NCBI GenBank assembly: GCA_039621445.1
Contig: CP154954.1
Span: forward strand, 18,400,642-18,464,641
Reading direction: 5' to 3'
Length of the DNA stretch: 64,000 nucleotides
From: Euglena gracilis
Lineage: Eukaryota
Position numbers and translations under genes: made by a program. The first letter of the stretch is position 1; every line of letters begins with the position of its first letter. This document shows, piece by piece, positions 7,024 to 58,934 of this stretch. Under the pieces are notes generated by a model, which saw only the letters and a program-made list of their open reading frames with translations, ran no database searches and was not told where the DNA came from.

Positions 7024-7376
7024 GACACCTCGGGCTCCGCACTTTGCCCTTGTGTAGCCATGCCTTGCAAAGGCATGGCCTCGCAAGGCCTTTGCCCTTC
7101 GCGGTCGGTGCCCCTTCCTCCCTTGTCGGTTTGCCTCGCGGGAGTAAGAGACGCGGTGGTGTATCTTGGTGCATCTATAGGTATCGATAGGTGCGTCTTG
7201 GGCAAAGCGCAACGACCTTCTGAGGCCATGCGGACACCTCTCGGCCTCCACGCTTTGCCCTTGTGAGACCATGCCTTGCCCGCCGGCGGGGGGGGGGGGA
7301 AGGGTACGCATAAGGACTTTGTGCTTCGTCCTCGGTGTTCCTCCCTTCATTGCGGGTTTTCCTCGAGGGAGTACGA
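7024..7376 (+). repeat. two tandem DIRS terminus-only units (left-start plus right extension)
   Basis: 7024-7046 and about 7233-7257 are the reverse complement of the 5' part of the copy 2 ICR. 7078-7150 and 7311-7376 are the reverse complement of its 3' part. No coding sequence lies between them. Confidence 0.65.
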
Positions 7377-7729
7377 TGTTGTTATCGATTGCCATGGGCA
7401 TTAGCCCCTGCCACGAGCATGAAGCAGCTGCCGCCGGCAAGGAAGGCATGGCTTCACAAAGGTCTTTACCACTCCGGACTCGCACTTCGGTTGGGTGAGA
7501 TCCTGCTTGTTTGTGCCGGCTGTTTGTTCATGGTGTGCTCTTTGGTGGGGTGCTTCTTACTGCTTTTTGTTGCCGGAATTTGCGATCCTAATCGCCCTTT
7601 GGACTACAAGCAATCATGTCGACATCAATCACATCCGAGAGTTTGTCGTCAACAGACGAGAGCGTCTACAGTGCCAGGGGACCTGGCGCTCTGTGTCAAA
7701 AAGGCACAGCAAGGAGAAAGACTGGACAT

Positions 7730-8100
7730 GAGGCATGTCTTGCAAGACGTATCAGTGTTTACTGGAATGAAACAGAGGGCAGAAGACAACAATCACCAAG
7801 CCGATGGTCGTTCAATCGTTGCCAAATTTATGACGGGAGTGCAACAACGTATGCTGAACGCCATAAGGCTGCTGGCATTGCACCCCATTGTGCTGCAGCA
7901 GGACACGTCTTATCACCAGCTGTGTCAACAACTGTTTTACTATTTGGCTCAGAAGTGCAACTCCTGCGGGAGAGAAAAGCGCAGGAGCATCCTGGGAGCT
8001 GCGATGGAGTCCATCAACGTTCTATTCACTTCAGCAGATTTGCAGGTGGACAGAACGGTCCAGAACATCAATGGAGGAGGTAAGGCTCCCCTTACTCCCA
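7730..8100 (+). pseudogene. gag-like ORF1 remnant of DIRS copy 3
   Basis: RHVLQDVSVFTGMKQRAEDNNHQADG...GVQQRMLN...QQLFYYL aligns by eye with the copy 1 ORF1. Confidence 0.75.
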
Positions 8101-8631
8101 AGCGCTCCAAGTCGTATTTTCCCATCCGCACAGGTTGGGGACATTGGTGAAGAGAAGGTGGCAAGGGCAGTCGGCCCCTCAACAGGAGCTATGGCAGCTC
8201 ATACCCATCACCATGGCGGGGGAAGAGCCTGGACAAAGGCAGAATCTATGGATTCAAAGGTCGTGGACGTGGAGGAGCTTCCATCTGGCCAGCCAGTCTC
8301 CAGGCAAGAACAACGACCCAGGGTGGGTCCCAAAACTCAGCAGCTTTCTTATCAAGAATGCCCCCTACAGCACATGATTCAATGCAGGGAAAAACAGTGG
8401 GGGGACACCCTTGCCCCAAAGACTTTTGAAAACTCTGTCCAGGTGGAGAAAACATGGAAACACTTTTCTCTGTCAAATTCTGCAAGAAGGCATTCTACCA
8501 GATTTCCCATTACCCCTAAACCTGTCAAAAAAAACACAAGATTCTATGGGAGAGAAGAAATTGGTTTGGCAAACAGGATTTTGAGGGATTAGGAGTCCTC
8601 AGGTGCAGTCAGAAAGCTACCTCCAGGAGCT

Positions 8632-9830
8632 GTGTCCAAGCACTTGGTGCCTTGGTTCATCATTTCAAAAATGGAAAAGGACACCATCAAACATCGTTTG
8701 ATCACAAATTGCAAGGAATTAAACACATTTTTAACAACCCCCCCCATTCAAACTGACCACCCTGTCAGGGATCTTCCCCTACCTGCAGCAGGGTTGGTGG
8801 GGGGGAAGTTGGACCTCAAGGATGCATACTTCCATCTCCCCCTTCACCCATTTCTTCAGAAATATTTACATCTCCATGTGAGGGAAACGGTGTGGGAATT
8901 TCAGTCAGCCAGTTTTGGAATCAGCAAATTACTGTTCCTGTTCATGCAATTTATGAAGCCTCTGGAAAAACTGTGGCAGACAGGGGGCATCCTATCCTTT
9001 GTATATCTCGACGATATACTGTTTTTGGCAAAATCCTCCCAGCTGGTACAAGCAGGTTTCAAAATCAACATCCCCAGAAGTGTGTTACTCCCCAGTCACG
9101 TGATCCCCTACTTAGGAGCAGTGATAAACCTGGCAGAAGGAAACCTTCAGGTCCCACTTCAAAAGCTAAAAACCCTGAGAAAGGAAATCGGAAAAGTTTT
9201 GGTTGCAAGTCACCTAACTTGTCGAAAAATGGCTGCAATTATACAACCTCTGAGGAAAAAATGGTCATCATCTGTGCAAAAGTATGCTAATTTTTGGGAT
9301 GCCACCCCAATTGTGCAAAGACTGGCTGCTGATGATGCCCCCCTGCATACTTTGCCCTTTCCTGAACTGCGGTTACGTCTCATTGTGATTCTGCGTTTAT
9401 TCTCCTTTTTTCGAGGTGGGGATTTGGCTTCTCTCCTTAGAACCTGTTCCAGACTTCATGACAAATTCTTTATACAAGTCAGGAGAAAGGGTTTGAAACT
9501 CCATCGGTGGGAGCAATTGCCTTCTCTGAATTCACAAGTGCACATCAGTCAAGTACACTTTTGGTGGAGTATGTTAGACGTCCGGCTCACAAAGGAAAAA
9601 CCGGTTTTCCTTTCACTTCAACCGCCCTTTAACGCTTTGAAGCCAAATTCCATCAATGGCCTCACAAAAAAAATTTTGTTGCAGCAGGGGGTCCCTGCCC
9701 TGTATGGGGCACACAGCAAAAGAGGTGCAGGGGTCTCTTTCTTTTAGTCTTTTGGCTTGGACTCAGAGGAAGTGTGCCAAATTGGTAAGTGGAAAGATCT
9801 AAAAAGTTTTACATCCCATTATTTGCGCAT
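8632..9830 (+). pseudogene. DIRS RT fused in frame to YR by internal deletion (RNase H and MT lost)
   Basis: 371-aa ORF: LVPWFIISK..KHRLITNCKELN, KLDLKDAYFHL, VYLDDIL, then from about 9241 YR motifs FRGGDL...HSKRGAG. Stop at 9745-9747, after which IGKWKDLKSFTSHY continues. Confidence 0.85.
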
Positions 9831-11906
9831 CAACGCCCCAAAAAAGGCGGCAGAAAAAATCGACAATCTAGTGCACAAAATCTCACCCAAAAAGTGCGCC
9901 GCCCGAGTGGTCGTGCGCTCCGGGGACCTTTAGGGAGCCTGGAGGAAATGGCCAGGAGGGCGAAGCATAAGGGCAGTGTGAGTCCGCCCGCCCGCCCGAG
10001 GGGAAAAGACGATTCGAGTCCAAAAAGCCGCACCAGACTCACAAGGTCTTTGTGCTTCGCCCTCGGTGTCCCTTCCTCCCTTGTCGGTTTTCCTCGAGGG
10101 AGTACGAGACCGCCACCTCCGGCAACAAACACGCAGTAAGAAGCACCACACCAAAGACCACACCATGAACAAACAGCCGGCACAAACAAGCAGGATCTCG
10201 CCCTGCCCTTGTGCTTCGCCCTCCTGGTCATTTCCTCCTGGTTCCCTAAAGGTCCCCGGGGTGCACTGTGTCCCTTTCTCCCTTGTCGGTTTTCTCGAGG
10301 GAGTACGAATCTTGGGAGATGCGTGAGAGCACGGGCGATTTCCTGGCCAGAAACTCTCTAAAAGCGGTGCGCCACGCCAGAAAATGGAAAATGCCAGTTG
10401 TCCGGGGGGGGACATCGCCCATGAACAGGAACAGTCGGGCTCCGGGTCCCCCATCCACCATCTTGGTTTTCTGGGACGGGGCAAAAGAGGCTTCGCAAAC
10501 AAACGGACGCTGAGCACTGCAACACACAAGAGTGAAATCAACATCGGTGAGCAATAGCACAAAAGTTAGAGGAGGGGAAGGCTCAAATGTTGTGCTTTCG
10601 AGAACAAATCCAACATTTGATCCTCTCATGGAGTTCTCCCAACAAACCAGGTGCCCAGGAATGCACACAAGATGCACTGAGCATCCTTGCTATTGACAAC
10701 ATGAGCCTTGGTTTATCTGCCACTTTCAGAACATTTCACCCTTGATGGGACAGGTTTTTTCAAAACATTCAGGTGAAACCAGTAATCGGCTCCAATTGGT
10801 ACCTTTTTTTAACGTTTGCACAGGTTTTTTTTGTGAATCCCTGTAGATTTTTGATCATTGTTCCTGAATCCCCGTCTCAGAAATATCTGTGCGATGATGG
10901 TTGATGTGTTGTTTTTTGTGATTTGTGGAATAAATTCAAAAAAAATGATGGTTGATGTGTTGTTTCGCTGTGTTGACAAAAAGGTTGACAAAAAAAAGTG
11001 AGGTGCAATAAAATACAAATATGCACAGGGAGATGTACAAAGAGAAACCTCCAAATATGCAATGTGAATGCAAAAAAAATGCAAAAAAAAATGCAAAACT
11101 GCATGTAAAGTCCTTTAGGAACTCACCTGCTGGAAAGGGCCTAGAAAATTGTCACCTCTGACAAAAATTCTCATTGTACAACATTATTTGTTGTACAATT
11201 CGATGGACGTTTTCGATGATCCAGACCCAACTGGGAACACGCTTGGCCTGGGCACTCCGGCTCCAATTCCAAACCATAACCCAAACCCTATCCAAGCAAA
11301 TGACCCTGACCATACCTCCCTTCAAGGCCCTGCAGACCCCGCATCCGGGGGGGGGGGGGGGCGCTGCAGCCAGTCCAAATCCGGTCCAGCCCAACCGCAG
11401 CAGCACCACTCGGGGTGGGGGGGGGGTGCTAACCCAGCTAGCCAGCCTCTTTGTGCTGGGTCAAGCCCAAAAGTGTCCAGAGATGGTAAAAAAATGGTGT
11501 TTTTGGGGGATCTTTGGGTGTTTATTTTTGGGTGGTTGTCAGATGCTCATTTATTCCAAGGTGCTTTTTGTACGTCATTTTGTTGGGCAATTGTCCGGTT
11601 TTGGCCCAACCCGGACCTCCCCCCCCCTTGTCATTGACACAGCGTGTCATTGCCATACCTCCCGTGCCAACGGGACTTTTCTGGAAGAGAAGTTTTTTCT
11701 TTGCGTTGGACACACACAGTTTCTGAGGAAATTCAGCCAAGACGCTTCAAGATTGTGTTGGATCTCCTTGCCAGCCATGGCTTCAAATTCACTATGAACT
11801 TGGTGTTGGTGTTTGGTGCCATATGAGAGCCAATGGTGAAATTGTGGAGGCCAATTGTTGCTGGAGCGGTCTGTTTTTATTATTATTATGACACCCTGCT
11901 GTTGAC

Positions 11907-13665
11907 CAGGGTGTGACGTAGAGCTGAGCTCTTTGGGAGACCACCCCGGCCCGGCCCGAGAAAAACGCTCATTTTCCGCTCAAAAACAGTTTTTCTGGGT
12001 CAGGGAGGCCAAAAAACATCGTTTTGGGGCCAAAAAAAATTTTCGATTTTTTTCGACTTTTTTGACCGGTTTTGACCCAAAGTCATGGGTTGGTGGCCCA
12101 AAACGGGGCGCTGGCGTGTCGCAAAACGCTCATTTTCGGCTCAAAAACAGTTTTTCGGGGTCCCGGAGGCCAAAAAACATCGTTTCGGGCAAAAAAAATT
12201 TTTCGATTTTTTTCGACTTTTTTGACCTGATTTTGACCCAAAATCAATGGGTTGGTGGCCCAAAACGGGGCGCTGGCAGGTCGAAAAACGCTCATTTTTG
12301 GCTCGAAAACACTTTTTTCGGGTCCGGGAGGTCAAAAATCATGGTGTTGGGCAAAAAATTTTTTTTCGAATTTTTTCGACTTTTTGACCCAAAAATGGCC
12401 AAGTCCACCGGCCAGGGGGCGGGCCCCAGCTAGGGGGGGGGGGGGGCCTGTGGGGGGGGGCCGGGGCGGAAAATTTTTTTTCGCTCAAAAACACTTTTTT
12501 TGATGTTCTGAAGTGAAAAAAAGTGTTTTTGAGCGAAAAAAATTTTTTCAAAATTTTGGGTCCCAACCTGCCACCCGACCCCCCCTCGCCCAGCCACCCT
12601 GACAGCGCGCAGTGGGGTCCCCAAATACCCAAAACTGGCCCAAAATCGCACAATCAGGCCCAAGAACCCCAAAAAACGGTCAAAACCCCCCCCTAAACCT
12701 AATGATTGACCCCCTGGTTTGGGTTCCAACTCCTCGTCTAGCCCGAGATACGGCCAATTTACGGTTTCGGCCCCGAAATGGCCAGAACTGGCAAAACTGG
12801 CCCAAAACCCCCAAAACGGCCATATCTCGGGCTAGGCGAGGAGTTGTCCCAAACCGCGCATACCAATCGATAGGGCGTTCCAAGGTCGTCAAATGAGGTC
12901 GCCATCACTTTTCTTCAACTCCGCAGCGTTTTCGAGATATTTTGAATTTTTTGATTTTTGACCCCCCAGCCCGGCCGCCCTCGAACCCCTGCAGGGGTCC
13001 CCGAATACCCAAAACTGGCCCAAAATCGCACAACCAGACCCCGGGAACCCCAAAAAACGGTCAAAACCCCCCCCCTAAACCTAATGATTGACCCCCTGGT
13101 TTGGGCTCCAACTCCTCGTCTAGCCCGAGATATGGGCAAATTACGGTTTCGGGCCCCGAATGGGCCCGAAATGGCCAAAACTGGCCAAACTGGCCCAAAA
13201 CACCAAATTGGCCGTATCTCGGGCTAGGCGAGGAGTTGGCCCAAAGCGCGCATACCGATCGATCGGGCGTCCCAAGGTCGTCAAATAAGGTCGCCATCAC
13301 TTTTCCTCAACTCCGCAGCGTTTTCGAGATATTTTGAAATTTTCGATTTTTGGACCCCGAAAAAACCTGCAATTTCCCCGAAAAAAAAAACGGTACACAA
13401 CTTTTTTGCTCGGGCCCGATCTCCGAACTGGCGGGGAGTTACGGCTATTGTGGGGGTGCGTTGGCAACCTGGGACCGTCTCCTAACCTATAGGCCATTCA
13501 CTTTGGGGACCCGGAAATTTGATCATATCGATAATCCGCGGGACTCCCTGCCTACCCAGGGAGGGGGGGGGGCGGGGGGGGGGGCGGGGGGGTCAGGGGG
13601 GGTCCCAAACCGGGGTGGTAAGCTTCGCTCTTACTCTAAAGAGATAAGAGCTCAGCGACCCCCCT
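11907..13665 (-). mobile_element. unclassified hairpin-ended non-autonomous element (family A), copy 1
   Basis: GCTGAGCTCTT near 11923; hairpin GCTTCGCTCTTA-N11-TAAGAGCTCAGC near 13622-13657; internal 163-bp tandem units (11960-12400) and an approximately 350-bp direct repeat (12612-12960 and 12995-13355). Homologous to 36590-41973 and 57602-60313. Confidence 0.75.
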
Positions 13666-14164
13666 GTGTCAACGGCACTTTCCTGGTGGGAAGGTCCCAA
13701 TGAGGACAGGTCAGCGAGTGCACGGGCGACAGTTTCCTGGGAGGACATTCCCCCCAGGGGGATGCCTGTGTTTTATATTTTTATGCAGAATAGAACGGCA
13801 TGTGCAAATAATTGCACATAATCCCACACCATTTCTGACCCCCCCCCGGGGGGAGCACTTTCCACTTTCAAAAATCATTCAGTCACTTTTCGAAAACCAG
13901 TCATTCACTTCCTCCCCCCCCCCCGTAGGGTGTGGTCAGTCTGGCCACTCGGCAAAATGGCTCAAAATCAATAGATTTTGCCCAAAACACCCAAAAAAAA
14001 TTTGCCGCTTTTGGCGCCGGGCGGCCACCTTCGGCTAACATGCCAACCCCCCCCAGAGGTTCAGAGCAAGAACCCCACCAGTACTCCGAAGAAGAAAAAA
14101 CCAGACAGTCACCCCCCGCCTGGGTGGAGTCGGACACACCTTAAGCATTGGGGATGGTCTGGAT

Positions 14165-14574
14165 CATACAATTGCTTACCGACCCCCGGGGGGGGGGGGG
14201 GGGGGGGGGCACTCCACTTTTTTTAAAAAAAAGGCAGTCACTCATTTTCCAAGAAAACGCATCCAGTCAAAAAACCCCCGGGCCCCAGCATAATTTTATT
14301 ACTCGGGGGGGGGGGGGGGTCTGGGTTGTTTTTGTTTTTTCTTGCCACTCAGAAAAATGGCCACTTTCCAGTCACTTTAGGCCATTTTAGGCCCAAAGAA
14401 TTTTTCCGGCGCCTTCGGCGCCGGGGTCACTCAAGCCACTTTTGCCCACTCCTGGCCAACCCCCCCGGGGGGGGAGGGGTCCGGGCCAAAAACCAGTCAG
14501 TCACTCTGAAAAAACCAGTCACCCACCCCCCCGGGGGGGGGGGGGGGGTTGGTCAGTGCTTAAGCAATTGCCTG
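14165..14574. mobile_element. hAT-like MITE
   Basis: TIR CATACAATTGCTTA / TAAGCAATTGCCTG; perfect 8-bp TSD GTCTGGAT (14157-14164, 14575-14582). Confidence 0.85.
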
Positions 14575-15322
14575 GTCTGGATTCTTGGAGTGCCTCTCCG
14601 GGGCATGCCATCATCCAATTCCACCGAGTTGAGAGTGAGCAACGTTAACAAAAAGAAAACTTTCTACTTTGTGAACGTATGAAAATGCTTGGGACGAAGC
14701 GTGCCGGACTCTTGGCTGGCGCGGGTGACACCCAAGCCACGCTGCCCAAGTCACCCATATCACCCATGTGGCGACAGATTGCAGAAATGGCAGGCCATGA
14801 GCACTTCCATCACCTGGGTGTGTGATGGACAGATGGGAAAGGGGGAGCGGAACATGTGACAGAATGCATAAAGAAGTCGCTGAGGCTCCTTTGAACAGAA
14901 AGTGATGGAAAGGAAATGATGGAAACTCGACCTCATTTGGGTGAGAAATTAGAAAAGGGGTATCCGGGTATCGAGGTACAACATGGCCCATTGAAGATTA
15001 AAGCTTCCTCTGTTGGCATCAGACCATAACTTGCCCCCCAGGGCTTGCAGGCCTTTCCAACAACACAGAAAAAGTGATTTCTGCAGCCTTGGACCATCGC
15101 CCATCCACCCAAAACGTCAAAAATGCGTTCTTCGACTTTTGATTTTTGCCCCGTTCGAGCCTCAGGCTGGCCGTTGGCCAGCCCCTCAGCCCAAGGACTG
15201 TCCGCAAGGGACGGTCCTCAATGGAAAAAAGGAGGACGTCTGAGGGCGGCCCTGGGTCAGTGGGCTCCCCTCTGGCGAAAGAAACGCCCCGGCCAGAACT
15301 CTGAGGAAAGTGGCGTCTCCGC

Positions 15323-15512
15323 CAGGCTTTTGCTTAAGGACCCGGGGGGGGGGGGGGTACTGGCTAGCCAATCGGCTAGACACTGGAAAAAGTGGACTAG
15401 CTAGACCCCCCCGGGGGGGGTCTGCTAGAAAACCCACTAGCCAAATTTGGACTAGCCGCAGTCCAGCCCCCCCCCGCGGGGGGGGTACTGCAATCCCTTA
15501 AGCAAAAGCCTG
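15323..15512. mobile_element. hAT-like MITE
   Basis: Perfect 17-bp TIR CAGGCTTTTGCTTAAGG / CCTTAAGCAAAAGCCTG; perfect 8-bp TSD GTCTCCGC (15315-15322, 15513-15520). Confidence 0.92.
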
Positions 15513-16004
15513 GTCTCCGCCAAGTTTCTTCCTCAGTGTTTCATTCCACTTCACAGCTTCATCGTCACCACTCAAAAAAAAAAAAACGACGCACCGGGAA
15601 GTGCGTTAATCGGAGGCGGTCAACGGCTCAGAAGCCTCACCCAGGACATGGAAAGCAAAGGCCAGGTGGAAAGTCAGGTTAGAAGTGGGGCTTGGACATT
15701 GAATGGTGAAACAATGCAGGCAGAGGTGGGCCAGGCACCTTCCAGGCATTTGAACTAATGAACAAAGCCAATGCATCTGATTGCTCCCCCCCAGCAGGAA
15801 AAGTCATCCGGTAAAAGGCATTAGATCTGCCATAATGACAAAGCAGCCAATAAAGGCAGCAATGTCGGGGTCGGGGTCGGTGGCAACACGTTTGGCGACA
15901 TACCCTGGGTTATCAACCTCTCACCTCTTAGAAAATGCGGGTGAGGAGACTGAAGACTGAAGAAGGCGGAGAGTTAATTGGATGTACAAAAAAAAGAGAA
16001 TATA

Positions 16005-16046
16005 TATACATATATATATATATCTCTCTCTCTCTCTCTCTCTCTC
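16005..16046. repeat. compound (TA)n(TC)n microsatellite
   Basis: Read directly from the sequence. Confidence 0.9.
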
Positions 16047-16454
16047 AAGTGAAAAAAAAATGTTTCTGCACATAAAATTCTCAACCAAAAAAAAATGATC
16101 CGAACCCCAAAGAACATCCTTCAGTAAACCCTCCCCCAAAATCATACCCCCCCCCTCGGGGTCCGACTTCGGCCACCGAGTTAATACCCCCCCCCCCCAA
16201 TCTCGGGCTGACGACCCGGATTTTGACCTGAAAATGTGGGGGAAAATAACAATCTCTGACAACAAATTACGAAAAAATTGATCATCTGGCCTCCAAAAAG
16301 AACAGAAAGGACAAAAAAACGACCCCAGGGTTTGGGTGCTATTTTGGGTCCCACGGGACTTCGAAAAATTTCGAAAATTCTGGGGTGCTGTTACCCCCCC
16401 AAATAACACCCTCGGGCCGGGACTTTGGGCGAAAAAATAATACCCCGGGGGGGT

Positions 16455-16811
16455 ATTACCTACCCCCCCCCCCCGGGGAAACTGTCATGCCTGAGAACCT
16501 GTCAGGGTCCCGCCCGGGAAACTGTCAGGGTCCCCGGTACCGGCCAACCTGTCAGTATAGGGTCCCCGGTACCGGCCAACCTGTCAGTATAGGAAGTTGT
16601 CAGGGTCCCCGGTACCGGCCAACCTGTCAGGGTCATTTTTTATTGACTTTCCCTTGAAATGTCCTACCCGGGAAACTGTCAGGGTCCCGCCCGGGAAACT
16701 GTCAGGGTCCCTGGTACCGGCCAACCTGTCATGATAGGAAGTTGTCAGGGTCCCGGGTACTGGCCAACCTGTCAGGTAACAGTTTCCCGGGGGGGGGGGG
16801 GGGTAGGTATT
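16455..16811. repeat. MITE-like element with internal tandem CTGTCAGGGTCCCCGGTACCGGCCAAC units
   Basis: Inverted ends TACCTACCCCC..GGGAAACTG / CAGTTTCCCGGG..GTAGGTA with repeated internal units. Confidence 0.6.
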
Positions 16812-17507
16812 TGGGGGGGGGGTTAAAGCAGTTCTTTCATAAATGGCCAACAAAAAAAGTTCTGCCATTTGCGACTAAACTTTCCCACCACCGGCAACAC
16901 ACAATGCAGCATACAGAAAAAACCTAAATAAGACCTCCCCTCAGATCTGCACCAGCATATCCCAAAATTTTGACCCCTTGAATGTGCATTTATTGCAAAA
17001 TGAGCGTCTTTTCCTGAAACCAGCACTTACAGAACAAAAACTAAGGTGCAAGCTCAGCAACATAATGTGGGTTTCATGAAACTCAATCCCCCCTCCAACC
17101 AAATATGAACCTCCCCTTAAAACTTTTGATCCCCCTACATCCCCATCACCAAAGAGACAACACCAGAACTGTGGTGTCCACCATTCGTCCAACACAGGGT
17201 GCTCGCTGCCAAAATAGGGTTTGGGGAAGGTTTAGGGCGAGCTTAAGGTGATGGTTAAATTAGGGTTCACCCATGGAACCAGACATGAATAGGAAGGGGG
17301 CTTAGAGCACGCCCACGCCCCATTCCCTCGGGGGTTGCGAGCCCATCTCTGGGAAGGCGGCAACGTCAGCGCATTCGGGTTTACCATCGTTCGGCCCACG
17401 GCCTGCTGTTTCCGCAGCAGGGACAGGTCTTTGGCGGACCACAGGCCCCCGGCCGCCTCCTCCCGCTGCTTCCGGAGCCGCTCGGCCGCAGGAGCTGGTG
17501 TTGGGGA

Positions 17508-17818
17508 CAGGCATTTTTTTAAAACAGACCGGGGGAGGGGTCCCCCCCCCACCCCCCCCCTGCCGGGCGGACCTAAAAGGGGGCGGGGCCCCCCCCCGGG
17601 GGGGGCCCGCCCCACTTTTAGGGGGGGGGGGGGTCGAGAGGCGCGACAAAGAAAATGCATGCAATCGGCGCCTTTGGCGCTGGTCAAAAAAAAAAATCCG
17701 GCGCCTTCGGTGCCGGGCACCCACCAGCCAAAAAAAGGTACCCGCCGGTGGGTGGGTCCGGCCAGACCCACCCACCCTACCCCCCCCCCCGGGTCCAAGA
17801 CTAAAAAAAAAACCCCTG
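17508..17818. mobile_element. hAT-like MITE (related copy at about 27723-27923)
   Basis: Ends CAGGCATTTTTTT / AAAAAAACCCCTG; flanks TTGGGGA / CTGGGGA (7 bp, 1 mismatch). Confidence 0.6.
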
Positions 17819-18374
17819 CTGGGGACGCTTTTCCCATCGGGTGGCCACACATGTCGAACTGGGGGGGGGGGCAGGGTTGCTCCGTCCAGATGGAAATGCA
17901 ACGCTCCCCAAAGCTGTTCTGTTGGGGCTCTGGAGAACATGAGGTGGGAGCCAGCTTCTTTGTCCCAAGGGGTGCTTTGCGTATGGGTGCCCCCCACAGC
18001 AACCATATCCCCCGGGGGTCAATTTTGGGGGCGATTGGCAGGGCTGTATGGGAAGGTCTGGTGGGGGGGGGGGGTCCCCACCCGGGAGGTCCAGGGGGTC
18101 GACCTCCCCCTCCCACCATTGGCACCGGCGCAAAGAAAATTCCTTCGGCCGCCCGAAGGATAATTTGACCTGAAAAAGGGAAGGCCTGGTGGGTGACGTG
18201 GGACCCCCCCTCCCGGGGGGGATAGCTGGTGGCTTTTTCCCCAGCCAGTGGAAAGTTCAGTGCAGTGGAACACCCCAGGGGCAGAATGGGAAGGACTGGT
18301 TGGGGGGGGGTCGCCCCCCCACATGGGAGGAGGGGGTGGGGTCGACCCCCCCCCCCACCCACACAGCATTGTCA

Positions 18375-18800
18375 CCAATTTTGGGAAAACGGATGTTGGC
18401 CGGGGAAGTTTTTTGAATTTTTTTTAAAAAATTGAACTCAAATGAATGATTTTTTGATGGAAAAACACATTTTTTTCACAAAAAAAAATCTCAAAATTTT
18501 CAGGTTTATAAATTGGTAGTTTTTAGGAGGAGGGTGAAAAAACAAAGGTCAAAAAATGGACCAAATTTTGGCACAGTCAAATTTTACTGACATTTTCTTT
18601 CTTTGAATTTTTTTGCATTTTCAATGGCACTGTTTGCTTCAAAAACTCTCAAAAGCAAAATTTTGAGAAAATGCTCAAATTTGGAAGGTGTGAAAAAAAT
18701 GGGGTTTGGGGGTTTTTTGGGGGGACCTCCTATATGGGTCCCGAAATGGCTCAAAAAAACACCCGGCGTTGAAGGAAAAAAATTTTCGGGTCCAAAAATT
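18375..18800. repeat. dispersed AT-rich repeat of about 400 bp (family C; further copies at about 22275-22620 and 23680-24060)
   Basis: Shared blocks GATTTTTTGATGGAA and ACCTCC(T/C)ATATGGGTCCC occur in all three copies. Confidence 0.75.
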
Positions 18801-19112
18801 GGTCCCTCCGGAAATACGGGAAGAGGTGGGGGTCGACCCCCCCACCCACCACCCTGGCTGTTTGGCCGCTTCCCGTTCTGCCCTGCCCCGGGGGTCTTTA
18901 AGCGAAGGCCACTTTAAGCCCCACTTCAGCCCCGCGTCTATGCCAAACGTCAGGCCTAGAATCCTAGCCATAAGGGTGTGTTATTGATACATGGAAAACT
19001 AAAGGAAAACAGGGGGGTTTGCTACCCCCGAGGGGGGGGGGTGTTATTGGAGGGGGGGGGGGTTACGTGATTCTACGTGATTTTGGAATACGCCTTCACT
19101 CCAAAAAAAAAC

Positions 19113-19328
19113 CAGCGGCTCCTGTGCGCCCTGCCGGCGGATGAAAACCCGGCGGCCCGTCTTTTCCGGCCGGGCCTCCCCCGGCCGCACCGCCTGGGGG
19201 GGCGGGGCGGGCGGGGCCGCCTTCACCGGCGACACCGTGACGGCGTGCTGCTCCGCCACCTCCCGAACCACCTCCGGCCGCAGGCGCAAGGACGGCCACA
19301 GCGGCCCATGGACGGATGGGCGCTCAAA
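19113..19328 (-). CDS. candidate host-gene exon (unknown protein)
   Basis: GC-rich island with acceptor ttctccgggcag|; 72 open codons FERPSVHGPLWPSLRLRPEVVREVAEQHAV...; weak GT donor. Confidence 0.45.
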
Positions 19329-20076
19329 CTGCCCGGAGAACATAACTGATTAAGGCGATCTTATGGCCGCCCCCATCGAGAAGCAGCTGACCTCCCCCTC
19401 CCGGGGGCGCTTGGCTGGGCCACGAGTCAAGGTAAGGCCAGGCCAGGTGGCCAACCAACTTTCAGCGGGCCATGCACAAAGTGGTCAAGGTAAGCCGAAT
19501 AATAGGGTCAAGGCTGAAAGTTAAGGCTGAAGGCCAACTGTAGGGGGGCCAAGTTTGCATGTGACGGGGAAGGACAAGGACCTGCAGTCGACGATGGAGG
19601 GGGTCACCCGGGGGAGCAGCAACGCCCACACAACTCCACCACAGTACAGTGATTTTCTGTTGCCCAAGAAGGGGCAGCCAATCCTTCTCTTTGACGCTCA
19701 TCACATTGACAGCGCAACAGAATTTGTTCCCGATCCAGACTACTGCTGGTCCAGAAAGCGTTTTCAAATGGGGATGAAGACTGGTTTTCGCCCAAGGCCA
19801 GAATTTTCCCGCCCGGATCAACCAGAAAGTGTGCTTGCTGGCACTTTCCTAACTTTTTTTCTGGGGAACAATATGATAAACTGGTGCAAAACACCAAAAG
19901 AAAATTTGGATTATTTAGAAAATTTAGATTTATGCCAGAGAGTCCATGGTCCTGGCAGGTGAGGTTGGTGTGGTTTCAGATACAAATAATTCAAGCCACC
20001 AAAGACCAGCAAGCAAAGAAAAATTGCTGTGGCATTTGGTTCATTACCAACACTGCCGAACCCTTCCCCCACTCAC

Positions 20077-20296
20077 CAACAGAAGATCCACTGACAGGCG
20101 TTGGTGGGCAGCCAAAGGCGGCTGGCTGTGCCGCGCTTCGGCGGGCTCATGTCCCGGGCCCGCGCCTCCGCCGCCGCCTCCGCCACCGCCTGCCGCAGCG
20201 CGGCGTGGACGAGCTGGGCAGTGGCCCGCTCCAGCGCGGCCGCGCGGTGCGCCGCGGCGACCCGGTGGGCGGCGCACGGGGCCAGAGCCGGCCGGA
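20077..20296 (-). CDS. candidate host-gene exon (Ala/Arg-rich, helical)
   Basis: Canonical acceptor ccgtgcag| and donor |GTGAGT; reads RPALAPCAAHRVAAAHRAAALERATAQLVHAALRQAVAEAAAEARARD. Confidence 0.55.
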
Positions 20297-22094
20297 CTGC
20301 ACGGTGGGTGCCCCAGCGCTCCCCCCCCCTGTGTGCACTGTGGCTGTTTTTTGGTGCCTTTTATCCCTTCTTCTGGCCTGGTGCTGTTGTTCGCCTCTGG
20401 CCCTTTTGTCTGTGCGCTCCCCCCCCCCGGAACACGTTGAAACCTCTCTAGAGAAGGCCTTTCAACCCTGGAATGCCTTCCCCCCCACCCGACCCCCGTA
20501 ACACCCACACCCCCCTCCAAAAAAAGGGCACGCCCAAAACATTATTTTTGGCCATTTTTTGAACACAACAAAATTTTTGGCTGGACCCCCCAAAAGGGGG
20601 CTGGCTGGCAGGGCTGGCAGCACCCCCCAGGGGGGGGGGGCTGCCAACAGATATGGGTGCGTAATTCAGCCGTGTTTCCAAGATTCCCATAGCCCTGCTT
20701 ATCCCCCCTCTCCCTAGGCAGCAAAAAAAAAAACCCGAGGGTTCAAAAAACAACAAGCACGCTGTAAGGAAAAAATTGTTTACCTTTTTGAGTTGGTGGA
20801 AAATCCAAAGGTGGTCGTAAGAAATGGGGGGGTCATTTTCAAAAAATTTCATTGGTCGTACTAAATGGGGGGGGGGGGGGTAAATCAAAAAGTCGAAAAG
20901 GTTCAGTCAGTCACGCACTGCTGCTACCACTGGCTTGACAGAAGTGAGAAACAACCCAAACATCCAGAAAAACGTCACAGCTCTGTCTGCATCCAACAAC
21001 TTAGCCTCGGCAACGTCCCCATGGGTCCCTCCATCGATGGTCACTGTCATCATCATGATTATTTCATTCCTCATCCTGTTTAGCGTTCTCATCAGGGACG
21101 CGATAAGGGACTCTCCAAAATGCGACATGAAAAAAATGCAAAAAAAATCAGAAATACATGGAAATAGTGCAAGAGAAAAAAGCACAAGTTCAATTAAATC
21201 CATTTTCGGTACCTGGGTGATCGAATATCCGAACAACAGCATTTGCACTTTTTGAACTTCCTGGTCCCAAAAAGAACACAAAAATGTCAAAACAAAACAA
21301 AACATTAATCACAAAATAAAATAAATCTGAAAAACAATTTTCGGATCAAGCTATTGCCAGCAGTGAGCAAAAAAAGTCACCACCAAAACACAAATGCACA
21401 CAGAAATTGAAAAATCTGATTCCTTGACCCCCAAAATGGTCCCAAAAAACGCAAAGTCAAACCATCCCAAGTGTGCAGCACTTGGAGGCAAGCCACTGTA
21501 AAATGGCCACAACTCGGGCCATTTCTGTTGCCCGAAAAGGCGCACAGGCCAAAAAACACCAAGGTTGGGTCTGTTCCCTGAGTCTCAACAGTGGAAAATG
21601 ACGAGGTCCCAAAATAGAGGGTCGCTGCAGGAACACAGGGTCAAAGGGGTTTTGTTTCAAACATGGCGTCGCATGGCAACCCCCCAGGGGAGGTCCAGCT
21701 TCGAGGTTGGAAATTTGGGCTGGCGGGAAAAGGCTGCCTCCGCCAAAGGGGTCCCCCTTACTGGAACTGGGTCTGACCGGGGGTCGAACCGGGTGCCAAA
21801 AAAATCGAAACTGCAAAAATGTCAACAAAAGCAGCCAATTACGCAAAAAAAAACAACAAAAAACAGCCAATTAACCATCCAAAAAATCGGGGTTTTTTAA
21901 CCCTTTGTCAAAAAATGGTTGGCTCGACCCCCCCAGGGGATGGGGTGCCCTTCGGCTTAAGTGACGCCCTAATTCTGTTTTTTTTTTTGAAAAATCTTCA
22001 GACAAAGGAACATGAAATGCTCCTTTTTGAAACTTTGAGGAGGAAGAGTAAAACCCTCCGCAAGCAAAGAAATTTAGAGGCTGAATAGTAGAGA

Positions 22095-22245
22095 CCTGGT
22101 TGCTGCCTCTTGAAAGGGGTACACAACAGCCTGAAGAAACCCATGACCGAGCATCTGCTTCAGCATTGCGGACCGTTCCGACGCAAACCTTTGCATCAGC
22201 AACAGGCCAATTTCGGCGAAATCCCAGCCTCTTGCAGGAGGGTCC
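22095..22245 (-). CDS. candidate host-gene exon
   Basis: Non-repetitive island reading GWDFAEIGLLLMQRFASERSAMLKQMLGHGFLQAVVYPF; boundaries approximate. Confidence 0.35.
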
Positions 22246-37046: not shown

Positions 37047-37181
37047 TTAAAAACGTGTTCAGAGCCCGCCAAATGCCTGCCCTGAAATTCATGGTCATGA
37101 GTCACGCAAGGGGTCAAAAACGCGAAAATATGAAATTCAGACCCAAAAAACGGCGCCCTAATGGAAAACGTGCCTGACCAC

Positions 37182-37605
37182 CATAGCTGGCGTTTTTTTG
37201 TTTTTTTTAAAAAAAACGTTTTTTTTGTTTTTTATTAAAAAAAACGGGCAAAAAAAACGGCAAAAAAAACAAAGGGGAAAATGATGGTCCAAATTTTGCC
37301 TTTGATCGCAAGGGTGAACCAATCTTTGCTCAAATGACTTGAAAACCAATACTTTTGGTTGTCTTCAACAAGAATGGTCAAAATAGGGCATTTTTCTCCC
37401 ATTTTGGGATGTTTCAACTTGAAACATCCCAAATTTGGTGTCTTTCTCTGCCTGAGGATGGGCAAAAAAAAGCTAAAATTAAAGGCAAAAATTTTTTTGC
37501 CCTGGACCCTCAATGGCGTTTTTTTTTGTTTTGTTTTAAATAATATGTTTTTTTAAAAAAAAACGTGTTTTTTTTGACTTCGTTTTAAACGAAGTGCCAG
37601 CTATG
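37182..37605. mobile_element. hAT-like MITE (same family as 52929-53381)
   Basis: TIR CATAGCTGGC / GCCAGCTATG; perfect 8-bp TSD CTGACCAC (37174-37181, 37606-37613). Confidence 0.92.
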
Positions 37606-38811
37606 CTGACCACAGATGCCTTAATGGAAGATGTGTCATTGCCACAGATGCCTTAATGGAAAACGTGCCTGACCACAGATGCCTTAATGGAAAACGTGTC
37701 ATTGCCACAGATGCCCTAATGGAAAACGTGTTACCCCTCCCCCCATACCTAAACGCACGGCAAACTTTGTGAGCACCGTGAAGCGTGGAAAAATCTGATG
37801 ACCACCGCTGGCCGTCTGTTGAAAAGAGCTTTCGATCGAGGGGTAACTTGGTACCCTAACGTTGCACGAAGCCCGAGATACGCTCACAATCGTCGGATCG
37901 GCCAGAATCTTAGTCGAAATTTGTGGTGGTTTTTGGTGCTGCTTGGTTTAAAATGCTTAACAAACCATACAGAAACGATTTTTGTCTTCGAATCGAGGGC
38001 ATCTGGGGTCCAGGGAGGTACAAGAATTGTGAAATTAGGATTTCCCAGTGACAGGAAATACCATACCCCCCCCCCCCCCCGAGCTACTCCCGTCCCCGGA
38101 ACAGCTTGGGGGGGGGGACCTAGGTCCCCCCCCCCGAGCTATTCCCATACCCGACCCTCGGGCAACCCCAAGGGGGTCATTTTTGGCAACTTTTTTTGGA
38201 TGTTCGCAAAAAATGGTCATTTTTAAGCACATTTGTCAAAAAGTGATTTTTGAAAACTCCCTCTCGCCCTCCGTGATGTGGGTGTCAAACTTTTCAATCG
38301 CTTGATACACCAACAGGTTTCAGGTTCCAATTGTCTTTTTGCTTGAATGATTTCCATTTCAGAATCTGGATGCCAAGCAGTCAAATTCCTCCAGAACCTC
38401 AAGAATGAAATCCATTGGGGGAGGGGGTGGGAAAGGGGTTGGAAGTAAATGTATGAGTTGGGGGTTCCCCAGCTTTTCGCTCAACCCCCTTTCTCCAATG
38501 TTGCACAAAATTTGGGGAAGTTCTTTTTTTCCCGCACTGCTGTGGGTTCAAATTCAAATTCACTCTTGAACACCGCAACTTGGGTGGTTGGTTATCAAGA
38601 GGTACAAAGCCCCCCAAATTCCTCCAAAATGACATTTTGGCATTCACTTCATTCCCTTCCTCCCTTCCTTCCCTTCCTCCATCATTTGGCAAATTAAACA
38701 TCAAAAAAAGGGGTAAACCACTGCTCCAGAGTACAAACCAACCCCCCCCCCCCCGCGGGGGGATCAAGCCATGCACCAAAAGTTGCAAAGAGCAAAAAGA
38801 CCTCAACCTGG

Positions 38812-45700: not shown

Positions 45701-47532
45701 GGCTTCATTTGGTGGCTGTGGTGAGACCCGCCTCTGATTCTCATGTCCAATGTGCCCTATTTTTTTCGAACAACTCTCACAAATTCCAGGATTTCAATTC
45801 ATCCACAGGCGGGTGATGACACGACTTCGCGAAAATTATCGCGATTATATCAGGGGTTTCACCGGACGAAACGGCGGTGGGGCGAACCGAATCCACCGAC
45901 CAGTGGCGCAGCCTACTGGATTTGAAGTGTACGGGGGGGAGGCTATGCACCGATTGGGAGACCCCATGGATGAGGATAAGGCAGAGGGTGTCATCCGGTT
46001 CCCAGGAAACCTGGAAACCTGGAAGGGCGAAGAGAGGGTAGAATTAAGTGTCGTGAGGGGGAAGTAGGCTGAGAGGGCAGAAACAGGGCAGGAACGTGCG
46101 GTAACATGGGGGCATCGTAATGGCAATCTAAGCCGCATTAAAAAAATCAAAAACAAAAAAAAGCTTTTTGAAAGAAACAGAAAAAGCCAGCGAGAGTTTG
46201 GTGAATTTTTTTAAAAATTGTTAGGATTTTCCCTTGTCATTTTTGGGACGTGCAAAAAATTTTGGGCACTTTTTCAATGGTTTCTCATGTCTGGCCCCAA
46301 AGAACCTTTTGGTCGTCGGTTTGAAGGGAAAAAATCGCTTTTGTATTGTTCATTGTGTTTCTCAAATAAAGCAGTGCCGGAAATGACCACAAATTTCGAT
46401 TATGTTTCTTTTTGATCCGACGATCGCGAGCATATCTCTCACTGGTTGTGTGCAACGTTGTGGGCACCCTCACCCCCCTCAAAGTGTCTCCCCCTCAGTG
46501 TGGATAATTTTTGGCAACTTTGGTTTACCCCCCTTGAAGTGGCCATTTCTTTTGGCGCCGAAGCGCCGAAGCCCAAAAATTGCCCCCCCCCCCGCCCCCC
46601 CCCCCCCCCGAGTGGCCGTTTTGGGGTCCTGTGGTGCCTGGAGGGTGGCCACTTTGAGGGGGGGGGTGAGGGTACCAATCTCGATCGAAAGCTCTTTTCA
46701 ACAAAAATCCATCGGTGGCCATGAAATTTTCAAGGTTGTGCACTTGATAGCAAACCACTGGCAACATGGATAACAACTCTTGCCTCTTTGGCCAATCCCA
46801 CCTCCGGTCACTCCTCACAAGGTGGTGGGCCGAATGCATGCATGTTCGCCTTACTAAACTTACTAAACTGGAAGACATGTCACCTTGAGTGTCAAGGGCC
46901 ACTGTTGCCCACGTGATCCAAACAGGTCAGTCGCATGGCTTTCTCCTCTACTGTCTGGGGAAAGGCTCCCAAGGAAGCTGTGAAATGAGTGGTGGTAGGT
47001 TTAGTGGTGGTTAGGGGTATGTATACAATATGCGCGAGAAGACATTTGAGAAAAGCTCAAGGTTGTGGGAGAGGGGGAGGAGCGGTTTTTTGTGTTGGTC
47101 CGGAGGTTCGGCGTGGAGGGTGAGGGAGGGAGGAAAACTCGGTGCCTTTTCCAAGGCAGCCAAATGCCTTCTGAGTAAGGGGGTCCATGACTCCCGGTCC
47201 GAGGACGTCCTTGCCGCCCTGCGCGGACTACACCCCGTCGGGGCGGGCTTCTCCTGGTCCGACAATGACCAACAGTTAGCTTCCACCCACTATTGCTACG
47301 TCAACTCCCCAGCCGACGACCGGTTGGCAGCACTTCGTAAAGTTGCCCTCGGGTTCCCTCCGGGGAGTGCACCGGGGCCGTCTGGCCTGCGACCCGCATA
47401 CCTTGCCGAACTGTTACGGGACGGTGACAGTGGGAACCCACTCCGTTGCTGTAGGCCTTGGACGACCTTGTCCAACAGTGCACCCAGGGGTCTCTGCACC
47501 CCACGGCAGCGGAATGGCTATGCTCGGCCAAC

Positions 47533-48315
47533 CATAGGTGTAGAAGTGGGGGGTCGGGGGGGGCGGCCGCCCCCCCCTAACATTTTGGGAAGAAATTTTT
47601 TTTGAAAAGTGTGTGATTCACATTGTTTGTGGTTTTTTCAATTTCTCACACCGAGAATTCAACTTTTCATTGAACTTTAGGGTGTTTTTGCTGTTGGACA
47701 TCGCTACCGTCTCGCCGCCCTTTGTGCGGCCAAAGACGTGCTGAATTCATGGGTCGGGGGGGGCGAAAATCTCGGCAAACAGGAAAACATGCATCTTGAC
47801 TACGCTTCCAAAGCTCTTTTTTTTCAAGAGCACACAATTTTTGTTGACAAGTTTGGCAAGTTGACAAGTCTTTTTGGGGAAGGTTTTGGAAAATTGCATT
47901 ACCGTCAGCCGCCCTTCGGGCGGCAATAGATTTTTTTTGTTCCACGCAAATCCTAAGACACAAATCCTGAAACCCAAAAAGGCGTCACTCTTGCCGCTTG
48001 TTGGGCGGCTCTTCCAAATTGTGATGGATTGGTGGCATAATGTAAAAATGGCGGCTTTTTTTGTAACATTCAATGCCATCTTTCAAAAAAGCACTACCGT
48101 TTTGCCGCCCTTCGGGTGACTTAAAAGCTTCCAAGTTGTGATGGATCAGTGTCATAATGCCAAAAATTGCCACATTTTTTTTTGTAACATTCAATGCCAT
48201 CTTTCAAAAAAGCACCACCATTTCGCCGCCCTTCGGGCGGCGAGGGAAAAATGGATATTTTCAGTCTTGTCGAGGATCTCGCCCCCCCCGAGAAAAAATT
48301 ACTTCTACACCCCTG
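47533..48315. mobile_element. hAT-like MITE in the CRE RT (same family as 53724-54910)
   Basis: TIR CATAGGTGTAGAAGT / ACTTCTACACCCCTG; perfect 8-bp TSD CGGCCAAC (47525-47532, 48316-48323); removal restores CSAN|LFPLRKK. Confidence 0.92.
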
Positions 48316-49494
48316 CGGCCAACCTCTTCCCTTTGCGGAAGAAGGACGACGGGGTACGCCCGGTTGCCGTCGGGGAGACCTTTGTGGAAAAATGCCTCAT
48401 GGCTCTTCCCGAGACAGAGGACGTGGGCGCCAACCTGCGCCCGTTACAGTCCGCCTTTGGAGGCAAAAGCGCCTGCGAGCAAATTGGGATCTCGCTGCAA
48501 CATCTGAGCGCAGGGACGACCCTGACTGGGTGTACTCCAGGTCGACATACGGAATGCCTTCAATTCTGTAAAGCGGGCTGCCATCATTGATGCCGTCAAG
48601 CGCCAGGCCCCGCACTTGCTGCACTGGTGCCGCCTTTCCCTGCAGCCATCCCGTTTGTTCGTTGGGGACAACGAGATCTAGAGCACGGAAGGTGGGCAGC
48701 AGGGAGCACCCCTCGTGCCTCTCCTGTTCTCGCTAGCCATTCACGACACCCTGCTTTCGGCACCAGGACGGGGCAATTCCTTCTGGTACTTGGACGACGG
48801 GTCCATCTTGTCAGACGTCCCAACTGCTGATCGCGCCCTGGCACACCTCCAGATCGGCCTGGGCCGCCTGGGGTGTTCTCTGAATCTAACCAAGACTACC
48901 GTGTGGGGCCCAGGGGTTCGGCATATCCCCTCTCTGCATGATGATTCCGTCTTGCGTGGGGCCTTTGTTGTTCCCTTCACCCTCGACTCCGGGTCTCGGT
49001 GTTGGGCGTCCCGATCCATCACCCTTCGGATGTGTCCTTTGTTCGCCAGCAATTAGAGGTATCTCCAAGCATGAGCAAGCAACAGCACTGCTGGGCTCCG
49101 TGCAAGACCCCCAAGTCCAACTGTCCTTACTCCACTTCTGTTTCGACGCCTGTAAGTTCAGTTCTTTGTTGCGTAGTGCTCACTGCCTCCCCTTTCCCCA
49201 CTTGCTGGCCCGTGCGGACGGATGCCTCCGGGCCACTTTCCAGCAGATTTTGGATTGCTCTGTCACCGACACACAATGGGCCCAGGCTGCCCTGCCTCTG
49301 CGTTTGGGTGGTTTCGGTATCCGGCTGGTAGGCTTGTGCCAATTAATCGTTTCGGGCTGGCGAACAATTAATCGCGATTAATCGGGGTGTCTCGGACGAT
49401 TAACGATTAATTGGTCCCTTCCGTTTTTTGACAATGAAATCTCCCTAAGAAGCTGGCACTGGACTCCGTCCTGCCGGCACGTCTGAGTGCACTG

Positions 49495-52883: not shown

Positions 52884-52928
52884 CGTTGCCAGGCACGGGG
52901 CTTCTCCCCATTGATCCTCAGCGTCTGG

Positions 52929-53381
52929 CATAGCTGGCGTTTTTTTTGTTTTTTTTAAAAAAACGTTTTTTTTTGTTTTTTATTAAAAAAAGAACGGGCA
53001 AAAAAAAACGGAAAAAACAAAGGGGAAAATGATGGTCCAAATTTTGCCTTTGATCGCAAGGGTGAACCAATCTTAGCTCAAATGACTTGAAAACCAATAC
53101 TTTTGGTTGTCTTCAACAAGAATGGTCAAAATAGGGCATTTTTCCGCCATTTTGGCTTGAAACCATTCCAAACAAGGTCCTAGTGCCAACTATGGTTGAA
53201 ACATCCCAAATTTGGTGTCTTTCTCTGACCGAGGATAGGCAAAAAAAGCTAAAATTAAAGGCAAAAAAAATTTTGCCCTGGACCCTTAATGGCGTTTTTT
53301 GTTTTTTTTTAAAAAAAACATGTTCTTTTTAAAGAAAACGTTTTTTTTCTTTACTTCGTTTTAAACGAAGTGCCGGCTATG
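52929..53381. mobile_element. hAT-like MITE
   Basis: TIR CATAGCTGGC / GCCGGCTATG; perfect 8-bp TSD GCGTCTGG (52921-52928, 53382-53389); near-identical to 37182-37605. Confidence 0.92.
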
Positions 53382-53723
53382 GCGTCTGGGGGTCCTTCGG
53401 CGAGACAGTCACGGCGTATGGGATGAGCTCCGGCGTCGCCTTGGGGCCATGGCCTCCGGTGGGGCGCGGAGCGTGTTCCTTGATGGACTACAACAGGGCC
53501 TCTCTTTGGCACTGTTCACCGGAGTCGCCGCACAACTCGGTGCCCTCCTCATCGCCAAGGAGCTCGGCCATAATTGCTGCAGCTGTGGCTCCCTGTATGC
53601 CTAGTAGTCCTCCCCCCACCTCAGAAACTGCAAAACACTTGCCGCCACATCCATGATATTTTGCGCTCAGCCATGATATTGTGCCTCTTATCCCCCTTCA
53701 GCCAAGGAGATTTTCGTTCCTGC

Positions 53724-54910
53724 CATTGGTGTAGAAACTGGGGGGCAGGGGGGGCGCCCCCCCCCCCCCGAGTTTTTTTCCCCCCCCCCCCGAGGATTTT
53801 TTGACTCAAAACTTTTTTGCCCCCCCCCCCGAAAAAAGTTACCCTCCAAAAATTTTTTGCACTTTGTGAAAAAATTCTTTCAGATTAAGAACCCAACTTT
53901 TCATTGAACTTTTGGGTGTTTTTGTTGTTGGACATCGCTACCGTCTTGCCGCCCTTTGGGCGGCCAAACAAGCCCAAAACTCATGGTCAGAGAGGGGAAA
54001 AAAGTTTTCCTTTTTCCAATCTGAAGTTGTTGTTTGTGAATATCTCCACTCCCGTCTCGCCCTTTGGGTGGCAACAGGAAACACATGTAACTTGACTTGG
54101 CTTCTAATGTTTAATTTTTTAAAAGAGCAAACCATTCTGTTGATAAATTTGGCTCTTTTTGGGGAATGTTCTTGGAAAATTGCACTGCCGTCCAGCCGCC
54201 CTTCGGCCGGCAATATGTTTTTTTTGTTCAATACAAAATGGACCGAGGGCTCTTTTTCGCATTTTGCACTCGTTTCAAATCCCAAAACACAAAAGGCAAC
54301 ACCGTCTCCGCCCGCTGGCAGCTTGAAAGCTTTCAAATTGTGATGGTGTCAAAATGTCAAATTGGCATGATGTCAAAAAATTGCCACATTTTTTTGTTAC
54401 GTTCAATGCCTTCTTTCAAAAAAGTGCTACCGTCTCGCCGCCCTTCGGGCGGCAAAAAGAAAACAACACATTCAAACAACATTGGTAACAGGGTTTTTTT
54501 CCGTCGTGGACCCCAGGGGGAGGGGGGGTGGGGTGGGTGGGTCCTGCAAGGTTACTGGGCTGTTTTTAAACAAGTTGTTTATAACAGGTTTTTTTCCTAT
54601 TTGTGGTGTTTACTTTTAAAAAAAACACCCTTTTTAAAACAAAAAAACGTTTTTAAACCGTTTTTTTATTCATGAAAGTTTTTTTGCTTTTTTTTAAAAC
54701 AAAAAAATGGGAACATTGGGGTCCCGCCAAGCCCCCCCCCCCCCCCGGGGGTCACCCCAGGGGGAGTGGGATATTCTTTTCGGCGTCTTTGGCGCCGAAA
54801 ATTTTTGAAAAGGTGCTATTTTTGGAATTTTTCTGTTTATGACGGGCGCTAACTTCGCTTCAGGCCCAGGATCTCGCCCCCCCCGAGAAAAAGTTGTTTC
54901 TACACCGCTG
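53724..54910. mobile_element. hAT-like MITE with a nested insert
   Basis: TIR CATTGGTGTAGAAAC / GTTTCTACACCGCTG; degenerate 8-bp TSD GTTCCTGC / GTTTCTGG; internal homology to 47533-48315. Confidence 0.75.
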
Positions 54911-54949
54911 GTTTCTGGGGTCACATTGGCACACTTTTTTGCACAAAAA

Positions 54950-58930: not shown

Positions 58931-58934
58931 GACC

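Follow-up and report, generated by a model that had tools for sequence, protein, structure and literature searches.

The window analysed here is a stretch of 64,000 nucleotides from Euglena gracilis (contig CP154954.1, positions 18,400,642 to 18,464,641 of the forward strand). It carries six compact elements, M1 to M6, bounded by terminal inverted repeats (TIRs) and flanked by target-site duplications (TSDs) of 8 bp. With positions counted from the first letter of the window and no strand assigned to any of them, the elements and the parts of M2 are as follows.

14165-14574 (14157..14582 with TSDs), no strand: M1, 410 bp, TSD GTCTGGAT on both sides
15315..15322, no strand: left TSD copy of M2, GTCTCCGC, same as 15513-15520
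15323..15512, no strand: M2, a MITE of 190 bp with ends CAGG..CCTG
15323-15339 and 15496-15512, no strand: TIRs of M2, 17 bp, perfect
15513..15520, no strand: right TSD copy of M2, GTCTCCGC
37182-37605 (37174..37613 with TSDs), no strand: M3, 424 bp, TSD CTGACCAC on both sides
47533-48315 (47525..48323 with TSDs), no strand: M4, 783 bp, TSD CGGCCAAC on both sides
52929-53381 (52921..53389 with TSDs), no strand: M5, 453 bp, TSD GCGTCTGG on both sides
53724-54910 (53716..54918 with TSDs), no strand: M6, 1187 bp, TSD GTTCCTGC/GTTTCTGG, matching at 6/8 positions

An earlier note, made from the letters of this DNA, had proposed six TIR elements, and all six are present where it placed them. TIRs were found in 6/6 and a perfect 8-bp TSD in 5/6, M6 being imperfect (6/8). 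Sizes range from 190 to 1187 bp and the TIRs are short (10–17 bp). M3 and M5 belong to one family, with ends CAT..ATG and 85% identity over 458 columns; M3 has a G+C content of 32% and is inserted in a 32-bp minisatellite. M4 and M6 are related through common segments at 68–91% identity and share the ends CAT..CTG; a reverse-transcriptase fragment lies directly downstream of M4, and M6 contains no Pfam-recognisable ORF. M1, also ending in CAT..CTG, and M2 occur once each within the window. Overall, the six elements comprise at least four families. Their subterminal short repeats are family-specific: M1 carries repeated CAGTCAC motifs, whereas the interior of M2 contains short repeats with CTAG and C-run/G-run palindromes, the latter being found close to the ends in most of the elements.

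A strict scan of the window (CA..TG ends, perfect 8-bp TSD, TIR of at least 10/12, length 40–3000) returned 17 matches, 12 of them inside an array of 19-bp tandem repeats at 58.9–60.0 kb. The five matches outside the array were M1–M4 and a low-complexity candidate at 39261-41444. The same scan applied to 40 Markov-1 shuffles gave a single match altogether. M5 and M6 are recovered only under relaxed settings, and such a scan is non-discriminating alone, with 49 matches in the real sequence against 19–45 in shuffles. The insertion of M3 is validated independently by its surroundings: excising the element together with one TSD restores the 32-bp register of two sister minisatellite arrays, with a score of 140 against 128 when both TSDs are kept, so that the sister arrays act as an internal empty-site control. 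The two additional features returned by the scan are:

58963-59958: tandem array, 19-bp unit, 52 copies, 87% matches
39261-41444: candidate element, 2184 bp, ends CAC..CTG, perfect 8-bp flank repeat TTTTTGAG

The 19-bp unit is partly palindromic and generates many false TIR/TSD matches. The flank repeat TTTTTGAG is of low complexity and may be due to chance.

The DNA contig sets X1 and X2 and the raw RNA read runs X21 and X22 were placed at 90% likeness on positions 4001-24000, the part of the window holding M1 and M2. Summed DNA depth, which is not a copy number, reached 1.1–2.1 million inside M1, with high values at 14358 and 14398, and 4.75 million at 15457 in M2, where at least 128 contigs contributed. 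Single-copy contigs near the two elements have a depth of about 90–220, exemplified by 14552-15112 and 15491-15982 in X1 and by 13657-14175 and 15104-15348 in X2. The M1 and M2 families are thus very high copy, and the single-copy contigs around the two insertions imply that their flanks are low-copy DNA. This corrects the earlier note, in which the clear examples had been placed inside other transposons. The insertions are plain: low-copy non-coding DNA surrounds M1 and M2, a minisatellite holds M3, and M4 has a retroelement fragment beside it. In a separate metagenome scan, the 17-nt TIR of M2 matched 71 loci, once in each and never with an inverted partner, and these were set aside as chance matches and not copies of the family. 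The published E. gracilis assembly amounts to 2.37 Gb, 59% of it repetitive, according to the excerpted text (PMC11252322).

The window has 461 stop-to-stop ORFs that reach 70 aa, and its coding content was surveyed by a Pfam profile search of 387 of them; those set aside included 9 that overlap or nest with others and reach 150 aa, and 64 of 70–77 aa outside 26208-48187. Among the 387 ORFs searched, no transposase, no hAT domain and no host gene was recognised, and the only matches were three fragments of a reverse-transcriptase domain:

4018-4347, + strand: RVT_1 fragment, Pfam E 2.6e-4
8593-9744, + strand: RVT_1 fragment, Pfam E 8.9e-7
48682-49053, + strand: RVT_1 fragment, Pfam E 2e-4

For the 384-aa reverse-transcriptase ORF, the nearest Atlas clusters join RVT_1 to a tyrosine recombinase; at a score of 0.82 this is no more than a lead, and it suggests DIRS-like retroelements. 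Neither a spliced leader nor rRNA was found in the window, the one gathering-level Rfam match being a tRNA.

M1–M6 are devoid of coding capacity. In their TIRs and fixed-length TSDs, and in being small, non-coding and multi-copy (the M3/M5 and M4/M6 pairs), they have the defining traits of MITEs. Elements of the hAT superfamily create 8-bp TSDs, have short asymmetric TIRs and subterminal repeats, usually end in YARNG and prefer the target nTnnnnAn. The duplications observed here have the hAT length. M2 fits the YARNG pattern at each end, and M1, M4 and M6 fit it on the right (CAGGC, CAGGG, CAGCG). At all other ends, on the left in M1, M4 and M6 and on either side in M3 and M5, the third base is T, and the left ends CATAC, CATAG and CATTG depart from the hAT pattern. 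T2 and A7 are both present in two of the six TSDs (M1 and M3), a small sample. In their 8-bp TSDs, short TIRs, lack of coding sequence and high copy number, the elements resemble described hAT MITEs such as the Mar and BniHAT families, as far as excerpts of that literature describe them; they differ from these in that no matching transposase appears among the 387 of 461 window ORFs searched and that CAT stands at one end or at both in three families. Because of these two differences, the hAT-like character of M1–M6, drawn from TSD length and TIR ends only, is a lead and not a statement of membership.

Duplications of 8 bp are also made by P, Merlin and short-TSD relatives of Mutator, and descent from one of these superfamilies, rather than from hAT, is a somewhat unlikely alternative. 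It would accommodate the CATAG found at both ends of M3 and M5, the CAT left ends of M1, M4 and M6, and the lack of any hAT domain among the 387 of 461 window ORFs searched. It is disfavoured by the shortness of the TIRs, by the right ends CAGGC, CAGGG and CAGCG, and by the asymmetric ends and subterminal short repeats that are typical of hAT. We retain hAT-like as the working description and consider it probable that M1–M6 are non-autonomous cut-and-paste MITEs, likely of this kind, and that an element of the M2 type would be an immediately spliceable intron if it came to lie in a euglenid exon, where its removal between positions 5 and 6 of both TSD copies would restore the target exactly. 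Their insertion would be the work of a transposase encoded elsewhere that makes 8-bp staggered cuts and is itself most likely hAT-like, and the setting would be a very large, repeat-dense genome in which some families have reached very high copy number.

The link to splicing arises from the nonconventional (NC) introns of euglenids. In the published excerpts, the most conserved and always-paired positions of these introns are CAG at +4..+6 and CTG at −8..−6 (PMC4770533; PMC11282704), and the E. gracilis consensus reads CCAGG at +3..+7 and CCTG at −9..−6 (PMC11170887). The knock-in experiments of Nomura 2025, as excerpted, define the code as N3-CDG...CH'G-N5-6|R (PMC12501133). The spacer before CDG is 3 nt with no length tolerance, that after the complementary CH'G is 5 nt with 6 tolerated, about 12 paired bases are needed inside the motifs, and the downstream exon has to open with a purine, C being the worst in knock-ins (PMC12501133). 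Any single substitution in CAG or CTG abolishes splicing, the only working motif pairs being CAG-CTG, CGG-CCG, CGG-CTG and CTG-CAG, and synthetic 50-bp introns that follow the rules are spliced (PMC12501133). The pathway is non-spliceosomal and structure-dependent, and it yields circular RNA (PMC11282704). The intron facts that the earlier note had given, that is CAG at +4..+6, CTG at −8..−6 and spacers of 3 and 5 nt, are thus borne out by these excerpts, the spacers by knock-in.

The same note had added the two spacers to give the 8 bp of the TSD, and this arithmetic is correct: removal of the element plus one TSD leaves a scarless target. If the TSD bases are numbered t1..t8, t6 of the left copy would be the first base of the intron and t5 of the right copy its last. 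M2 with its TSD reads as 3 nt, CAG(G), a paired stem, (C)CTG and 5 nt, in agreement with the motif, spacer and pairing rules, and its stem has 14 further perfect pairs beyond CAG/CTG where about 12 are needed. Including the last TSD base, the C that precedes CAGG, it agrees with 9/9 letters of the E. gracilis NC consensus. Predicted RNA folds of M2 are closed by the TIR stem in both orientations (−124.9 and −120.2 kcal/mol; z −7.3 and −6.0), with no equally good fold among 200 shuffles, in keeping with the proposal that the TIR would supply the pairing stem. The TSD is mostly single-stranded in these folds; on the + strand the stem extends 2 bp into it. Splicing in either orientation, as originally suggested, is limited by the purine preference: the downstream exon would begin with C if M2 is read on the + strand and with G if it is read on the − strand.

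The idea that several MITE families fit the code holds for M2 (CAG..CTG) and fails for M1 and M3–M6, leaving one of six elements and one of four families. M1, M4 and M6 (CAT..CTG) as well as M3 and M5 (CAT..ATG) violate the CDG/CH'G motif rule and accordingly should not be spliceable by the NC code; the recurrence of the same CAT..CTG asymmetry in M4 and M6 marks it as a family trait there and not as decay. It is very improbable that all the listed families together make up an active set of introners whose splice sites lie 3 nt ahead of the left TIR and 5 nt beyond the right one. Its appeal lies in the CA..TG ends and 8-bp TSD geometry common to 6/6 elements. Against it stand the published loss of splicing on single changes in CAG or CTG, the restriction to the four working motif pairs (both PMC12501133, as excerpted) and the third pair that CAT and ATG ends break. 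Code-like inverted pairs are also more frequent in the window than in shuffled sequence (197 against 47–84 in 10 shuffles), and M2 is the only one accompanied by a TSD; the excess therefore reflects general hairpin richness. For M2-type MITEs, the role of an introner source is plausible though unproven, and on sequence grounds it would extend to this one family.

Published flank preferences offer a second comparison. In the excerpted data, a purine occupies NC-intron position +1 in 51/55 cases and downstream exon position +1 in 55/55, a pyrimidine occupies upstream exon position −1 in 49/55 and NC-intron position −1 in 49/55, and C is preferred at NC-intron +3 and at downstream exon position +3 (PMC4770533; PMC11170887). 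Read in an 8-nt register, these preferences pair up, the purines falling on t6, the pyrimidines on t5 and the C's on t8. Knock-ins place no functional requirement on the exon base at the donor side (PMC12501133, as excerpted), and for this reason the pyrimidine bias of the upstream exon is, in our reading, explained better by inheritance or target preference than by a need of splicing. In E. agilis, a recently gained NC intron of gapC, found in one strain only, is bordered by direct repeats of eight nucleotides, longer than those of older introns (PMC4770533, as excerpted).

These correspondences could be a coincidence. M1–M6 would then be ordinary hAT-like MITEs unlinked to splicing, since CAG starts are common, any TIR makes a stem and the sum of 3 and 5 would be numerology. 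We regard this as a somewhat unlikely alternative. It gains from the five elements in six that depart from the NC code, and from the published interpretation of the E. agilis eight-nucleotide repeats, which their authors, in the excerpted text, read as a mark of double-strand-break repair (PMC4770533). It is harder to reconcile with the agreement of M2 with 9/9 consensus letters, the C before CAGG among them (PMC11170887), with three published flank preferences that pair exactly at TSD positions 5, 6 and 8, and with an upstream-exon pyrimidine bias that, lacking a functional requirement, fits inheritance from a duplication.

Gene context and RNA also bear on coincidence, and on its side: no MITE copy lies within a gene in the window, and no RNA junction is found among the joints listed. 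Pfam searches and frame reconstruction revealed no recognisable exon or gene holding any MITE copy in the window. Open frames restored across the six empty sites span 79–233 codons, which is ordinary against a median of 144 at 400 random positions. Comparison of the 61-aa open frame of M2 with longer proteins, which is weak evidence, gave 952 word-sharing candidates and none at E ≤0.001. Among the RNA reads placed on 4001-24000, most lay only partly on the stretch (8304/8533 in X21 and 4411/4633 in X22), the share continuing into unlike sequence was 0.96 and 0.93, respectively, and both strands were equally covered; the reads come almost entirely from other copies of the repeats. RNA-carried joints numbered zero among the 15 joints listed for 4001-24000 (3384 further joints).

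A further reading, which we regard as tentative and somewhat doubtful, is that a single transposon class, a hAT-like MITE with its 8-bp TSD, has left its footprint as the euglenid NC splicing code, and that CAGG..CCTG families are live introners. The code N3-CAG(G)...(C)CTG-N5 would correspond to a MITE plus TSD, cut between t5 and t6 in both copies. The non-spliceosomal pathway would then excise hAT-like MITEs from RNA without leaving a scar, and CAGG..CCTG families such as M2 would still be seeding introns. Inherited duplicates or target preference would account for the paired flank preferences, namely Y|R at either junction and C at position +3 of intron and exon alike.

Part of this scheme has precedents. 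A maize Ds element is reportedly processed as an intron, in work attributed to Giroux and dated 1994. A MITE-like origin of NC introns was proposed in 2014 (Milanowski, PMC3935182) and repeated in 2016, 2018, 2024 and 2025; as excerpted, the 2024 review describes the NC junction repeats as TSD-like and the CAG/CTG stem as a TIR (PMC11282704). No euglenid transposons were known as of 2014 (PMC3935182, as excerpted), and both the origin of NC introns and the reason for their spacer lengths were still called unclear in 2025 (PMC12501133, as excerpted). The excerpts of the NC-intron literature name no superfamily, 8-bp length or element family, and among the literature matches listed none links hAT or an 8-bp TSD to Euglena introns. 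An 8-bp TSD split into 3+5, with CAGG..CCTG ends equal to the NC consensus, appears to be unpublished in this form, as judged from these excerpts.

Euglenid NC introns, as excerpted, resemble M2 plus its TSD in their CAG(G)/(C)CTG inverted-repeat ends, junction repeats, spacers of 3 and 5 nt and stem. The present case differs from the published NC-intron MITE hypothesis in consisting of actual families with an exact 8-bp TSD, which here lie outside genes and are known from DNA alone. A further parallel is provided by the introners of Micromonas and other algae and by the TIR/TSD introns of Amoebophrya, Polarella and Fritillaria, which, in the excerpted review, are short DNA transposons with TIRs and TSDs, as here, and whose RNA loses the element and one TSD so that the exon is restored (PMC11282704). 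Those introners have spliceosomal or spliceosome-derived sites and TSDs of 3–5 nt (PMC11282704), whereas the cut sites of M2 would fall inside an 8-bp TSD and would involve the NC pathway and circular RNA.

Euglena NC introns number in the hundreds of thousands, and both their origin and their odd spacers of 3 and 5 nt are at stake. As a candidate source, the window supplies a high-copy CAGG..CCTG family where none had been named before. M2 also yields an exact numerical prediction, namely that identity between the junctions should follow an 8-nt register. An 8-bp TSD would explain three paired features of the consensus; should the 8-nt register prediction fail, M1–M6 would be ordinary MITEs.

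Several other features of the window are recorded here:

36951-37062, 39763, 40965 and 42158-42221: hairpin palindromes of about 60–80 nt with the common core CAGATTTCAGC.TGAAAACGTGTTCAG
37606-37731, 39537-39725 and 40771-40928: 32-bp minisatellites between the hairpin palindromes
49329-49451 and 51624-51746: inverted-repeat pair, 123 nt, 87% complementary, enclosing about 2.2 kb
51931-52002, − strand: tRNA-Thr (TGT) gene or tRNA-derived element, by Rfam and ARAGORN
58340-58934: 163-bp repeat, 3.7 copies, adjoining the 19-bp array

The 123-nt inverted-repeat pair may constitute a larger TIR or foldback element, and the ORFs between its arms match no Pfam family. Runs of four or more C followed by runs of four or more G occur 43 times in the window against 20 in the opposite order, often just inside MITE ends (e.g. 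14183-14209, 14526-14548 and 15467-15485). The accumulation of RNA reads with long stretches of G at 13559-13602 probably reflects a sequencing artefact for which a C/G run serves as the anchor. Another stretch, at about 22080-22260, has an A run at its end and resembles a retro-copy; Rfam gave no useful match at 21800-22500. Within it, position 22198 has an RNA depth of 23 in X21 and 31 in X22, with T instead of A in 22/23 and 31/31 reads, and a DNA depth of 0 in X1 or at single-copy level in X2.
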